Shown piece after piece: positions 29,015 to 32,780 of a stretch of 64,000 nucleotides of DNA. The notes beneath the pieces are model-generated. The model worked only from the letters and a program-made list of their open reading frames with translations, was not told the DNA's origin and searched no databases. Source of the DNA: an uncultured Gammaproteobacteria bacterium. GTDB taxonomy: Bacteria > Patescibacteriota > Patescibacteriia > UBA9934. Location of the stretch: NCBI GenBank assembly GCA_964452565.1, contig CAYVLY010000002.1, positions 22,661 through 86,660 on the forward strand, in the 5' to 3' direction. Both the position numbers and the translations under genes were made by a program. Numbering within the stretch: the first letter of the stretch is position 1; each line of letters begins with the position of its first letter.

Positions 29015-29104
29015 GGAGAGGTGCCGGAGCGGTCGAACGGGGCACCCTGCTAAGGTGTTGTGCCTTCACGGGTACCGAGGGTTCGAATCCCTCCCTCTCC
29101 GCCA
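29015..29104 (+). tRNA. tRNA-Ser (anticodon GCU), CCA encoded
   Basis: Cloverleaf folded by hand: acceptor GGAGAGG/CCTCTCC, anticodon loop CUGCUAA, long variable arm, T-loop GGTTCGAATCC. Confidence 0.85.
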
Positions 29105-29107
29105 TAA

Positions 29108-29138
29108 AAAACTCACAGCTTCTGCTGTGGGTTTTTTA
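29108..29138 (+). terminator. terminator module T1 (cacagcttctgctgtg + T-run); same module repeated at 32572-32607
   Basis: hairpin followed by gttttttatt. Confidence 0.5.
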
Positions 29139-29154
29139 TTGTTGAGATGTTGGA

Positions 29155-29280
29155 TGAGAACCCGAGAGGATAGGGTTCGTACTGCTACGAAGTGAGGAAA
29201 GAGAGTGTTTACATTCTTTTTCTGAACGAGGACGCAGTCAACAGGCCAGCAGAGCTGGCCGCATCCCTCCCTCTCCGCCA
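29155..29280 (+). repeat. tRNA-3'-end-containing repeat X1 (ends ...GGCCAGCAGAGCTGGCCGCATCCCTCCCTCTCCGCCA)
   Basis: ~85 % identical to X2 at 32624-32746; last 18 nt identical to 3' end of both tRNA-Ser genes. Confidence 0.5.
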
Positions 29281-29285
29281 AAAAA

Positions 29286-29308
29286 CCAGCGTTTATCGCT
29301 GGTTTTTT
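29286..29308 (+). terminator. terminator hairpin after X1 (ccagcgtttatcgctgg + T6)
   Basis: perfect 6-bp stem, T-run. Confidence 0.45.
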
Positions 29309-29523
29309 GATTATAAGGCTTATTACATGTTTTAATCCCGCAAGATGATCATCGCTGCATCATAGTATTCTTTCACAAACTTATTTCCATAATCTGAGAG
29401 CTTCTTATAGCTTCTTTGCATACCGCACAACCGGTTGAAAATGCTCTGTGAAGCATCCTTGAAATATATTCGTCCCCTTCTCAGACTCCTCCTTTACATG
29501 TTCTTGAACTATTTTCGTGATAT

Positions 29524-29952
29524 TCATAAATTAAATTTTTCTATTACTTGATAAAAAACTTCCCTCAAATCATCAAACGTAAGCGCATCTCGTGCCTCCG
29601 ATGCGCTCATCCATGTAGCACTCTTTAATTCGCTTGTAGGCGCAATTTGATCAGTGTCCGATATGTCTGCTAAGAAAACTTTGTATTCGCCCTTTGATCC
29701 AACTCGATCTTTTTTCCACTCTCCAAAAATAAACTCATGAACAAGGTCTGTTTCTTGTAGCTCATATTGATCAGGCTTGAGGCCTAACTCTTCCTTAACT
29801 TCACGCTGTGCAGTTTCGATCAGTGAATCGTCAATCTCATCAGCTGCACCGCCTACAAAACTAAAATTGCCAGTCTTGGCATTCTCTACAACTAAAAACC
29901 GAAGCCCTTGCTCGGTTTTTTTATAGAAAATAACAATAGCGCCTTTCATCAT
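29524..29952 (-). CDS. NUDIX hydrolase
   Basis: Nudix box GGAADEIDDSLIETAQREVKEELGL. Confidence 0.8.
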   Translation of the reverse strand: MMKGAIVIFYKKTEQGLRFLVVENAKTGNFSFVGGAADEIDDSLIETAQREVKEELGLKPDQYELQETDLVHEFIFGEWKKDRVGSKGEYKVFLADISDTDQIAPTSELKSATWMSASEARDALTFDDLREVFYQVIEKFNL

Positions 29953-30030
29953 ACCCCTACATCTTACTCTATCCGATCAAATCAAAAAAGACCCCACGGC
30001 CTCGACAAACTCGATGGCAACCCCCTCCAG

Positions 30031-30051
30031 CTCCCCCTTGGGAAGGGGGAG
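30031..30051. repeat. GC-rich palindromic hairpin ctcccccttgggaagggggag (same family as hairpin 2 of E1/E2 elements)
   Basis: Matches ctcccccttNcgaagggggag at 59419-59439 and 60620-60640 except loop. Confidence 0.4.
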
Positions 30052-30070
30052 AGGCAAGTCGCTTGTTTGA

Positions 30071-30946
30071 TTAAATTGATTCAGCTAGAAGCTTTGAGGT
30101 CGATACAACCGATAAGAACTTGAGCTTGTTCTTTTGAGGAATGGTATCTGTTACAACGATCCGACTCATACTAGACCGTTTGAGATTCTTAAGTGCGTTT
30201 TTCGAAAAGATGCCGTGCGTTGCTACAACGCTAACCGATAGTGCACCGCGGCGTTTCAGAAGTTTAGCAGCAGCAATGAGTGTCCCACCAGTGTCGATCA
30301 TGTCGTCGACGATCACTGCGTCCCTACCCCTCACATTTCCTGTGAGCTTCGTAGCTACAACCTTTCCTGGCTTTGGCCTTTTCTTCTCAACTACTGCAAC
30401 TGACTTGGTTCCATACAGCTTTGCCATGGCCTTGGCTCTTTTGATTGCGCCTTTGTCAGGTGAGACGAACACAGGGTCCTTGAGTTTCCAACTCTTGATC
30501 TTTGGTAAAAACAGAGGTAAGGCCGACATATTAACCACTGGGATCTTGAAGTATGAAATGGCCTTGTCGCTGTGCGCATCGACTATGACGACCTTCTTAA
30601 CTCCAGCAGATTCAATCATGCCGGCAACAACCTCTGCAGCCACAGAGCTCATTATCCGATCGGTTCGATCTTGTCGTGCATATCCAAGGTACGGAACAAC
30701 CGCGATAGGCTTCTTTTTACCTTTATGTCTTACAGCGTTCGACAAAAGTAAAAAATCAAAAAAATTCTGATCAGGCTGCTGGAGTGATCCAAAGACTACA
30801 GGCTGATCTCGCAAGGATCTTGCAACGATCTGAGCGCATCGTTCTCCGCATGCAAATGTCTGAAATCGCGCAACCTCGACCTTGGTCTTTGCAGCCTTGG
30901 CCACTTTACGCGCAAGTTGCGGATTTGATTGTGTAGATAAGATCAT
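30071..30946 (-). CDS. prs: ribose-phosphate pyrophosphokinase
   Basis: PRPP-binding VVIVDDMIDTGGTL, 291 aa, Prs N-domain motifs. Confidence 0.85.
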   Translation of the reverse strand: MILSTQSNPQLARKVAKAAKTKVEVARFQTFACGERCAQIVARSLRDQPVVFGSLQQPDQNFFDFLLLSNAVRHKGKKKPIAVVPYLGYARQDRTDRIMSSVAAEVVAGMIESAGVKKVVIVDAHSDKAISYFKIPVVNMSALPLFLPKIKSWKLKDPVFVSPDKGAIKRAKAMAKLYGTKSVAVVEKKRPKPGKVVATKLTGNVRGRDAVIVDDMIDTGGTLIAAAKLLKRRGALSVSVVATHGIFSKNALKNLKRSSMSRIVVTDTIPQKNKLKFLSVVSTSKLLAESI

Positions 30947-31566
30947 ACCCCCTTCATTATTTTTGTAACTTCATCATCTTCAGTCTGGTCGAAAACTTTA
31001 TAATAAGCACCAACGGCGTAGTACATGATGGGCTCATCAAGTGCTATGACCCCATCAACCTCTTTGCGAATTTGATCCAAGGAATCTCTAGCACCATGTG
31101 GTACAGCAACAATCAGTTTTGCAGGCTGTTCTGCCTTAGCGGTTTTTACAGCCGCCATCATGGTAAGACCTGTTGCTACTCCATCATCGACGATTATCGC
31201 AATCTTGTCCTTCAAATTTCGAGGAGCACAATCCCCGCGGTACAGATCTAACCTGCGCTTTGCCTCTTTCTTCTCATCTTCGATGGCCTTTTCAAGATAC
31301 TCTGGATTAGAACGCGCACGTTCAGCCTCATTCCACACAACTTCACCAGTCTCTGTTATTGCTCCAATTGCATACTCGGGGTTAAGCTCATCGCCAATCT
31401 TACGAGGTACGATTAGATCGAGTGGCAGGTTCAGTTCTTTTCGAATCTCATCAGCAACCACCACCCCGCCTCGAGGAAGCGCCAACAATATCGCTGACCC
31501 ATCATCTTTATAATCAGAGAGTACTTTAGCTAGCTGCTTGCCAGCATCAACTCGATCCTCAAACAT
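30943..31566 (-). CDS. phosphoribosyltransferase-family protein
   Basis: PRTase fold motifs LALPRGGVVVADEI and IAIIVDDGVATGLTM; overlaps prs start by 4 nt. Confidence 0.7.
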   Translation of the reverse strand: MFEDRVDAGKQLAKVLSDYKDDGSAILLALPRGGVVVADEIRKELNLPLDLIVPRKIGDELNPEYAIGAITETGEVVWNEAERARSNPEYLEKAIEDEKKEAKRRLDLYRGDCAPRNLKDKIAIIVDDGVATGLTMMAAVKTAKAEQPAKLIVAVPHGARDSLDQIRKEVDGVIALDEPIMYYAVGAYYKVFDQTEDDEVTKIMKGV

Positions 31567-31695: not shown

Positions 31696-31710
31696 GTTTT
31701 GCTCAAAAGC

Positions 31711-32238
31711 CTACATTTTATACACTCTCCGGAGTATGTCTGTCAAGGTCTCGTCCTCCCGTTCAAGATTCTCAAAAACATACGGAAGCAATGATTCGCG
31801 GATTGCATTTGGATCTGCATCTTCAAGGGGGATCGATATCATTGGCTTCAGAACACTATTGAAATCCACATATAGAGTTTTGACAATCGGTGGTTCATAC
31901 ACTAAGGCAAACTCTTTGATATCTTTGTAATCATGATATGTCTCACCCACAACGATCCCCATATCTGTGACATGAACCTCCATACGCTTTGGGTGCTTCA
32001 GACCATTCATAAGGAGTATAACTCCAGTCATGAGAACAATGATCGCAAACAGATAATTACTTGTAATTATTGAGTAGACAAGTAATGCAGCTCCAATAAC
32101 TGAGGCTATGATGTACCAGCTCTTTGATCTATCATTCGGGGTGTATTCAAAAGCCTCCCAGGACACTATAGGTGTCCCAACATCCTCAATCTCATCGTAA
32201 TGCTCAACAGATTCTTGTTTTTCTTTATTTTTAGGCAT
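31711..32238 (-). CDS. hypothetical membrane protein (two TM helices, acidic N- and C-regions)
   Basis: ORF directly upstream of and co-directional with tRNA-Arg. Confidence 0.45.
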   Translation of the reverse strand: MPKNKEKQESVEHYDEIEDVGTPIVSWEAFEYTPNDRSKSWYIIASVIGAALLVYSIITSNYLFAIIVLMTGVILLMNGLKHPKRMEVHVTDMGIVVGETYHDYKDIKEFALVYEPPIVKTLYVDFNSVLKPMISIPLEDADPNAIRESLLPYVFENLEREDETLTDILRRVYKM

Positions 32239-32284
32239 AAAAAACGTTCACCAATAGTATATCATGATTTAGAGCTTATGGGGC

Positions 32285-32313
32285 TTGATTTTTCCACGTA
32301 AATGGTGTATCCT
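32285..32313 (+). promoter_or_regulatory. putative promoter for tRNA-Ser(UGA): TTGATT-17-TATCCT-7-(+1 = tRNA 5' end)
   Basis: -35 32285-32290, -10 32308-32313, tRNA begins 32321. Confidence 0.4.
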
Positions 32314-32320
32314 TCTGCAC

Positions 32321-32410
32321 GGAGAGGTGGCTGAGCGGTCGAAGGCAACGGTCTTGAAAACCGTCGTACCTTCACGGGTACCGAGGGTTCGAATCCCTCC
32401 CTCTCCGCCA
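32321..32410 (+). tRNA. tRNA-Ser (anticodon UGA), CCA encoded
   Basis: Acceptor GGAGAGG, anticodon stem ACGGU/ACCGU loop CUUGAAA, long variable arm, 3' half identical to tRNA-Ser(GCU). Confidence 0.85.
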
Positions 32411-32413
32411 TCT

Positions 32414-32441
32414 AAAAGTCACAGCGCAAGCTGTGACTTTT
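32414..32441 (+). terminator. terminator hairpin after tRNA-Ser(UGA)
   Basis: aaaagtcacagcgcaagctgtgactttt. Confidence 0.45.
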
Positions 32442-32498
32442 AGATGGCTACAAACCGATAGGTTTGTCTGGATTACTCCGGGTCTTTACGGTAAGACA

Positions 32499-32571
32499 GG
32501 AGAGGAGGGATCCTGCCGAGTGGAGGAAGTTTACTTCCGAGAACGAGGCAATATCATCTCCCTCTCCGCCA
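32499..32571 (+). pseudogene. tRNA-like fragment (GGAGAGG...CTCCCTCTCCGCCA) with non-tRNA interior related to X repeats
   Basis: Shares 5' and 3' acceptor halves of tRNA-Ser but interior cannot form cloverleaf; followed by duplicate of terminator module T1 (32572-32607). Confidence 0.4.
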
Positions 32572-32623
32572 TAAAAAACTCACAGCAATCCAGCTGTGGG
32601 TTTTTTATATTGGAATGGGGTAT

Positions 32624-32746
32624 CGAACCCGAGGGACAGGGTTCGTACAGCTACGAAGTGAGGGGAGAGAAAGTTTACTTTTTCTGTCCGAACGAGGACG
32701 CTGTTCCTAGGCCAGCATAGCTGGCCGCATCCCTCCCTCTCCGCCA
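32624..32746 (+). repeat. tRNA-3'-end-containing repeat X2
   Basis: Aligns over ~120 nt with X1; ends with GCATCCCTCCCTCTCCGCCA. Confidence 0.5.
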
Positions 32747-32780
32747 TGAGATAGTCTCGACTTTGTCGAGGCCTTTTCGT

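Follow-up and report, generated by a model that had tools for sequence, protein, structure and literature searches.

Three short units, here named X1, M and X2, stand behind two tRNA-Ser genes in a 64,000-nucleotide stretch of contig CAYVLY010000002.1 (hereafter, the window), and each of them closes by repeating the 3' end of the preceding tRNA. We consider it likely that X1 and X2 and, by position and tail, M are members of the tRNA-linked repeats (TLRs), a class best known from Escherichia coli. Each comprises some 135 nt of sequence coding for a folded RNA, stands right behind a tRNA gene and ends in a 14-18 nt copy of that tRNA's last bases. To judge from the sequence, M would count as a TLR by its position and tail only.

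TLRs were first described behind the E. coli gene tyrT (rtT or RttR RNA, Rfam family RtT) and have been known since 1978; papers by Egan and Landy in 1978 and by Rudd in 1999 are also said to deal with them. As defined by Stenum et al. 2021 (PMC8144298), a TLR lies directly behind a tRNA or rRNA gene, whose 3' end it repeats exactly in its last 18-19 bp; E. coli K-12 has 22 such repeats at ten loci, with one to five at each. Three of them, RrA, RrB and RrF, are linked to 5S rRNA, lie between the terminators T1 and T2, are made by read-through, are processed and bind Hfq and CsrA, and their 18-nt repeat has been proposed as a 3'-processing signal; the other E. coli TLRs are without an assigned function (PMC8144298). 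The window units agree with the definition in position, in orientation, in the number of units per locus (one to two) and, for X1 and X2, in a tail that matches the tRNA at 18 of 18 positions (ATCCCTCCCTCTCCGCCA).

The window has three tRNA genes by both ARAGORN and Rfam: tRNA-Ser(GCT) at 29015-29104 (+ strand, CCA encoded; Rfam tRNA model, 55.7 bits), tRNA-Arg(GCG) at 31619-31695 (minus strand) and tRNA-Ser(TGA) at 32321-32410 (+ strand, CCA encoded). The 14-mer that ends the two tRNA-Ser genes, CTCCCTCTCCGCCA, is present in five copies, all on the + strand, starting at 29091, 29267, 32397, 32558 and 32733, where 0.04 were expected from shuffled sequences and none of 100 shuffles reached five. 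Two of these copies are the ends of the tRNA-Ser genes and the remaining three are the ends of X1, M and X2. For X1 and X2 the copied part is the 3'-terminal 18 nt of tRNA-Ser(GCT) (29087-29104, + strand), made up of the T-loop end, the 3' strand of the T-stem, the 3' strand of the acceptor stem, the discriminator and CCA. X1 begins 34 nt past tRNA-Ser(GCT) whereas M and X2 follow tRNA-Ser(TGA) head to tail, giving one unit at the first locus and two at the second, all on the + strand. The repeated entity is a cassette of terminator, body and tail with periods of 176, 161 and 175 nt, and each unit has a terminator of the hairpin-plus-T-run type on both sides.

At the first locus, the leading terminator (29106-29137, + strand) consists of an A-run, the hairpin CACAGC-ttct-GCTGTG (29114-29129), which was also found by the terminator scan, and six Ts (29132-29137); it looks bidirectional. 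X1 follows at 29138-29280 (+ strand) with the helices P1 (29152-29156, GGATG, with 29262-29266, CATCC), H1 (29158-29163 with 29173-29178), P2 (29181-29185 with 29234-29238), P3, a long hairpin (29192-29207 with 29212-29227), and P4 (29244-29249 with 29255-29260). Its tail (29263-29280) equals the tRNA's 3' terminus and is unpaired over the final 14 nt. Immediately 3' of the CCA of X1 the sequence continues into a second terminator, CCAGCG-tttat-CGCTGG followed by six Ts (29286-29308, + strand).

The second locus opens with a perfect palindrome of 19+19 nt around CACAGC-gcaa-GCTGTG (32407-32448, + strand; inverted repeat I7, 100% complementary), which takes in the GCCA end of tRNA-Ser(TGA) and is followed by a weak T-run, CTTTTAG. 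In a transcript that folded at this palindrome, the CCA end of the tRNA would be sequestered. The divergent unit M (32449-32571, + strand; assigned by position and tail only, and seen as repeat D10) contains an H1-like hairpin, CAAACC-gata-GGTTTG, an inner hairpin between GAGTGGAGG and GAGAACGAGG that is related to P3 of X, and a 73-nt rod (32499-32571) closed by the 7-bp stem GGAGAGG/CCTCTCC and followed by GCCA. Next comes the terminator CACAGC-aatcca-GCTGTG with GG and six Ts (32581-32606, + strand), which is the same module as that ahead of X1 and was seen in the sequence, the repeats and the terminator scan. It leads into X2 (32607-32746, + strand), 85% identical to X1, with P1 at 32618-32622 and 32728-32732, H1 at 32624-32629 and 32639-32644, P2 at 32647-32651 and 32700-32704, P3 at 32658-32673 and 32678-32693, P4 at 32710-32715 and 32721-32726, and the tail at 32729-32746. 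A terminator of the form GTCTCGAC-ttt-GTCGAGGC followed by CTTTTCG (32754-32780, + strand; terminator scan) lies 3' of X2.

Much of this layout had been noticed in a first-pass annotation of the same DNA and was borne out here. The two tRNA-Ser genes, described there as sharing identical 3' halves, are identical over their last 42 nt within an enclosing repeat (D3) of 79 nt at 86%; X1 and X2, given as about 85% alike, have 113 nt in common at 85% identity; both do end with the last 18 nt of the tRNA after a GGCCAGC-N3-GCTGGCC hairpin, as read in the sequence; and the 73-nt unit of the second locus is the rod of M. Two details had to be corrected, in that the tail of M (32558-32571) has 14 nt and not 18 in common with the tRNA, and the CACAGC...GCTGTG module is present three times (29114-29129, 32420-32435 and 32581-32598) rather than twice.

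The predicted folds of X1, X2 and M are more stable than those of their own shuffled sequences, with z-scores between -3.6 and -4.7 (X1, -4.5; M, -4.7 at -56.6 kcal/mol). X1 and X2 were aligned with X3, an orthologue that is cut by a contig end in the closest relative recovered, and the consensus structure obtained with RNAalifold is a four-way junction of 36 pairs, seven of which show compensatory double changes. Its helices are P1 (GGAUG/CAUCC), H1 (GAACCC/GGGUUC), P2 (ACNGC/GCNGU), P3, the long hairpin inside P2, and P4 beside the tail. P1 pairs the 5' end of the unit with the start of the tail (GGAU with AUCC), and the final 14 nt, CUCCCUCUCCGCCA, remain unpaired. Over the three sequences 97% of the cells were paired, and the observed paired fraction, double-change count and covariation score were each reached in none of 500 shuffles; slid controls gave 42-46% paired and 0-3 double changes. 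Differences between copies fall mostly in loops or are pair-keeping, with few that break a pair, and the G-U pairs are consistent with the + strand. The first-pass annotation had proposed such an alignment as a means of telling covariation from decay and, as far as three sequences can speak, the pattern is not that of neutral decay. In the modelled structure, P1 and the tail form a T-stem look-alike that closes the four-way junction and leaves the acceptor 3' strand and GCCA single-stranded. In an alignment of the whole family (MAFFT and RNAalifold) P1 was the sole helix recovered, the variable interior being misaligned, and its outer pair tracks the type of tRNA, A-U in Tyr and Pro units and G-C in Ser units.

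That X1 and X2 are distant relatives of RtT is probable, not proven. The motif GGATGAGAA-N8-16-GGTTCG, taken from E. coli RtT, has a single match in the window, at the 5' end of X1 with a spacing of 12 nt, where none was expected; in 157 loci it was found only at E. coli tyrT and in X3. We built two models, R1 from the RtT units of E. coli and of a viral contig (locus L156) and R2 from X. R2 aligns unit A of L156 over its full length at 25.4 bits, compared with 13-18 bits for bare tRNA-Ser 3' ends, and recovers P1 (GGAUU/AAUCC, one pair covarying), H1 and P4 in identical order; a GAACG element between hairpins is present in all units. L156 is itself linked to RtT: the Rfam model (RF00391, gathering score 45) gives 133-138 bits for E. 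coli units and 54 bits for two of the Ser-linked units of L156, and BLASTN aligned the interior of an L156 unit, with about 80% identity, to features annotated as 'RtT sRNA' (small RNA) in 2670 genomes of E. coli. The E. coli tyrT repeats are 178 nt long, each ending with the last 19 nt of tRNA-Tyr, and their bodies resemble the units of L156. At proK the order is tRNA-Pro, terminator, unit, the same terminator and the next unit, and a unit reads GGATGAGAACC...GGTTCGAC...GAGTAATCC followed by the tRNA-Pro tail with one mismatch.

Taken as a class, the E. coli TLRs resemble the window units in following a stable-RNA gene immediately and on its strand, in copying its last 18-19 nt and in occurring as 1-5 units per locus with a period of about 150-180 nt; the window units differ in their host, a Patescibacteria (Uhrbacteria-like) genome, in their link to tRNA-Ser and in the 14-nt tail identity of M. 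The RtT units of tyrT and proK appear to be like X in having a 5' block GGAUGAGAA(CC) followed by a hairpin ending GGUUCG(A/U)AC, the GAACG element between hairpins, a terminal hairpin just ahead of (A)AUCC and the tail, and a 5' strand that pairs with AUCC and the T-stem 3' strand. However, the three to four hairpins of RtT stand against two hairpins and an enclosing stem in X, and the interior of X (the P2/P3 module) cannot be aligned with the E. coli units by profile methods. The proK unit lies between two terminators, as do X1 and X2, while the tyrT units are separated by non-terminator spacers inside one operon. RrA, RrB and RrF likewise lie between terminators and repeat at their end the 3'-terminal 18 nt of the upstream RNA; they are linked to 5S rRNA, in contrast to the window units, and are bound by Hfq and CsrA through GGA motifs.

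Related units were found in other genomes. X3 lies behind tRNA-Ser(TGA) in the closest relative (L024), whose ComF is 75% identical to that of the window, and an Uhrbacteria genome (L158) has a different unit behind tRNA-Ser(TGA), with a 5' block resembling L156 and a decayed tail. Since L158 differs and the relatives L026 and L027 carry no unit, the presence of units among relatives is patchy and their turnover is therefore fast. A metagenome scan with the pattern GAACGAGG-N-CCCTCTCCGCCA was swamped by ordinary tRNA-Ser genes, which make up most of the matches listed, because in these genes the variable arm joins the T-stem at GAAC-GAGG; from among the same matches come at least three metagenome loci (L051, L117 and L047) with a unit of like build immediately behind tRNA-Ser(CGA). 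In L051, a closely similar locus, tail and terminator are duplicated as a 57-nt direct repeat. L117 has the order serS, tRNA-Ser, unit, is Gallionellaceae-like by its seryl-tRNA synthetase and has a tail with one mismatch to its own tRNA; in the three Gallionellaceae relatives fetched for serS synteny no tRNA-Ser follows serS, and they yielded no more units. The unit of L047 is longer, retains an anticodon-arm-like hairpin and has in its tail the local T-stem variant CTCTC.

A scan of viral contigs for two tails 157-187 nt apart led to L156. Here a 75-nt 3' fragment of tRNA-Ser(CGA), about 270 nt past the last open reading frame (ORF) of a prophage remnant, is followed by 4.5 tandem units of 184-187 nt that carry the same Ser tail; alternate units are identical and the fifth is truncated within its TTCGAA block. 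On this contig (1-13659) the array lies between two integrase-bearing elements, one flank being the prophage remnant with integrase, terminase, capsid, protease and portal genes and the other a P4-type integrase gene (11020-12453). From this context, TLR tails or T-arm-like blocks might act as secondary attachment sites. Over Tyr, Pro and three Ser variants the tail follows the local tRNA, as seen in L047, L051, L156 and E. coli tyrT and, with one mismatch, in L117 and E. coli proK. BLAST searches of the window units against plasmids and phages gave no match.

A number of results weigh against the assignment of the window units to the TLRs and to RtT. The Rfam search suggested in the first-pass annotation placed only tRNAs above threshold, and the RtT model did not match X1 or X2 in 28900-32900 even at E <= 10. 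R1 scores X2 at 23.6 bits (32615-32746, E = 3e-4) and X1 at 17.5 bits (29179-29280), with bare tRNA-Ser ends at 14-21 bits, the margin of X2 over such an end being only about 5 bits and X1 having none. With the tail cut off, R1 gives at most 2 bits and a tail-less nhmmer profile an E value of 0.69, so that the similarity of the bodies is at noise level. The body of M is matched by neither model, R1 finding nothing and R2 only 7.7 bits on 32550-32571. Homology of the interiors would thus rest on short blocks, helix order and intermediates, and these might also have converged from the same tRNA sequence. The covariation is based on three sequences (X1, X2 and X3), and the absence of units from the close relatives L026 and L027 marks them as dispensable. 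No promoter-like site is placed to start any of the three units and strong terminators precede each, so transcription is assumed.

The first-pass annotation had preferred to see in the repeats the layered attL/attR scars of repeated integrase-mediated integration and excision at tRNA-Ser, left to neutral decay, which we now regard as very improbable. Units and attL/attR borders do share a direct repeat of the tRNA 3' end downstream of an intact gene; moreover, the identity of the tails begins in the T-loop, a crossover site of many integrases, every relative has other genes 3' of tRNA-Ser(GCT), and recombinases are found beside tRNA-Ser in relatives and at other loci. Yet none of the 10 ORFs scanned in 24150-35999, including the four between the two loci, has a recombinase domain, and tails only 161-176 nt apart enclose no integrase or foreign DNA, merely a terminator and a structured body. 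Decaying scars would also fit poorly with bodies that are 85% identical between the loci and differ mostly in loops or by pair-keeping and compensatory changes, with a unit length held at 161-187 nt across distant bacteria, and with the same family behind unrelated stable-RNA genes in E. coli (tRNA-Tyr, tRNA-Pro and, according to PMC8144298, 5S rRNA). Real scars, such as those in L156 or L103, are bare pieces of a tRNA 3' end that lack such a body and come with kilobases of foreign DNA and a recombinase. In L103 (1966-2055 and 2880-2934), and also in L070 and L107, plain displaced tRNA-Ser(GGA) 3' fragments were seen; the L103 fragment is repeated with its terminator 879 nt downstream and has the look of a classical scar, unlike X and M. 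The other suggestion of the first-pass annotation, a family of small structured RNAs whose 3' end mimics a tRNA, appears essentially right, the family probably being TLR/RtT; folding and covariation as a known RNA family, named there as what would speak against scars, were largely found, with the reservation that Rfam RtT misses X1 and X2.

It is also quite unlikely that X and M are decayed or specialised genes derived from tRNA-Ser (pseudo-tRNAs or mimics) that arose by local tandem duplication and are unrelated to the E. coli TLRs, although several features recall a tRNA. P1 and the tail correspond to a T-stem with the 3' strand of the acceptor, H1 contains GGGTTCG, which is similar to the 5' half of a T-arm, many tRNA-Ser genes have GAAC-GAGG where the variable arm ends and the T-stem begins, and the L047 unit has kept a hairpin like an anticodon arm; once the tail is removed, similarity to RtT is at noise level; M, with its perfect 7-bp acceptor-like stem and GCCA, might then be an acceptor-stem minihelix recognised by tRNA enzymes. 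Against this, ARAGORN and the Rfam tRNA model call only the three true tRNAs and neither X nor M, the element GGATGAGAACC, absent from the tRNA, is shared at the corresponding position with the proK and tyrT units of E. coli, and both the helix order of the RtT-array unit and the dual-terminator layout of E. coli recur here. Non-autonomous mobile cassettes of about 175 nt, excising and re-inserting at tRNA 3' ends through the tail, possibly with a recombinase supplied in trans and with the hairpins serving mobility, would account for several observations: the patchy presence in close relatives (X3 in L024, another unit in L158, none in L026 and L027), the same cassette including the upstream terminator behind two different tRNA-Ser genes, the identical alternate units of the L156 arrays and their place between integrase-bearing elements, the 57-nt direct repeat of L051, and a family found behind tRNA-Tyr, tRNA-Pro and tRNA-Ser with the local tail each time. 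Such mobility is compatible with the units being TLRs; as the explanation of the units we hold it to be unlikely, in view of the recombinase-free ORFs around them, of the very different tails, which would each need a site-specific enzyme of their own, of the G-U pairs and compensatory changes, which point to selection on a one-strand RNA, and of the 5S-linked E. coli members, which are transcribed, processed and bound by Hfq and CsrA (PMC8144298).

Other candidates were tried and rejected. ARAGORN reports no two-piece transfer-messenger RNA or other tRNA-like gene; a hammerhead or other ribozyme core is a misfit in sequence and has no Rfam match; no match supports reading the P3 internal loop as a K-turn or riboswitch; and a guide-RNA scaffold with a 3' guide has no nuclease gene nearby.

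If the units are TLRs, a path to a stable product can be proposed by analogy with RrB and rtT. Transcription would start at the tRNA promoter, for which the promoter-like site TTGCCA-17-TATTCT ahead of tRNA-Ser(GCT) (28967-28995) is a candidate, and would continue through the first terminator. The cut by which the tRNA gets its mature 3' end would free the unit just behind it. Because the unit presents the same sequence and helix, its own 3' end may be made by the tRNA 3'-maturing enzymes, and what results would be a stable small RNA with CCA at its end. The cassette of terminator, body and tail may spread and be lost through recombination at the shared tail, which would explain the copy behind both tRNA-Ser genes, the tandem arrays and the patchy presence.

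The interval between the two loci holds NUDIX, Prs and phosphoribosyltransferase (PRTase) genes, tRNA-Arg and an ORF of 175 aa without a Pfam match; for the first four, Pfam and ARAGORN agree with the first-pass annotation. Genes near the loci include RecG, RadA, a cluster resembling a type IV secretion system and ComF. The best homologues of ComF and of the 175-aa protein are from Candidatus Uhrbacteria / Patescibacteria, and about 44% of the bases are G or C. A look-up of proteins encoded in the window found no entry with an identical sequence. The genes 3' of tRNA-Ser(GCT) vary by relative: PRTase, prs and nudix in the window (29300-31700), HD, PLDc_N, VanW and GIY-YIG in L158, and isochorismatase in L026. 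L027 has the two tRNA-Ser genes about 210 nt apart, and compared with the window and L158, both L024 and L026 carry the segment of tRNA-Arg, the 175-aa gene and tRNA-Ser(TGA) in inverted orientation. Recombination has a hot spot in the interval that separates the two tRNA-Ser genes. In a further group of Uhrbacteria-like relatives, loci L166-L173 (about 2380-3000, minus strand), a partial tRNA-Ser(TGA), its 5' part interrupted by extra hairpins, is followed by a GIY-YIG endonuclease ORF (2482-2757), both just upstream of the intact tRNA-Ser(TGA); this may be an insertion of the homing-endonuclease/intron type or a partial duplication.

Further observations concern motifs and models that overlap with the units or the tRNA-Ser genes. 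At gathering and permissive thresholds, the other Rfam results for the window and related loci were only sub-threshold matches of sX4 and of plastid families over a tRNA-Ser gene. Those of sX4, a Proteobacterial sRNA, are full-length (window 32302-32467, L051 2791-2952 and L117 7716-7872) and coincide with tRNA-Ser plus terminator, and the sX4 model seems to describe a tRNA-Ser locus. A scan of the genome collection with CGAAGTGAGG-N-GAACGAGGAC gave 23 matches, about the estimate from collection size, and no X units. The internal-loop motif of P3 (CGAAGUGAGG, hairpin, GAACGAGGAC) was seen apart from any tRNA tail in L019 (1970-2019), L004 (1897-1934) and L014 (4233-4270), all on the minus strand; one copy is in a Saccharimonas intergenic region and two are in one metagenome-assembled genome, in a conserved element that spans about 125 nt and whose outer stem shows compensatory change. 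These three have a hairpin between the motif halves and no Rfam match, and may be an unrelated use of the motif. L037 (760-900 and 9360-9420) has three copies of a palindrome, CTCCCTCTCCGCCATGAAATGGGGGAGAGG, that resembles repetitive extragenic palindromes and contains the pyrimidine run of the tRNA-Ser tail, with no tRNA nearby.

TLRs are an old and little-studied class, and the window units add to it a divergent member in a distant candidate phylum. Units of like build here, at L117 and L051 and in the L156 array, with compensatory changes that keep a common fold, suggest that current models detect only part of the class and that its members are selected as RNA. P1 provides a comparative handle on such units, as it joins the 5' strand to the copied tRNA tail and covaries with the type of tRNA; in annotation, repeats of this kind should not be read as integration scars or pseudo-tRNAs. 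The added value is modest and lies in a fold that recurs across phyla and in the tail-dependent helix P1. A wider proposal, possible but doubtful at present, is that the TLR/RtT units are one ancient dispersed family, reaching from enterobacteria and Gallionellaceae to Patescibacteria, that takes on the 3' end of whichever stable RNA precedes it. If true, this would imply that the tail is actively acquired, either through T-loop recombination or with RNA as the template, and that the units have a conserved role connected with the processing or quality control of tRNA 3' ends, with the minihelix of M as a form that would engage tRNA enzymes directly.

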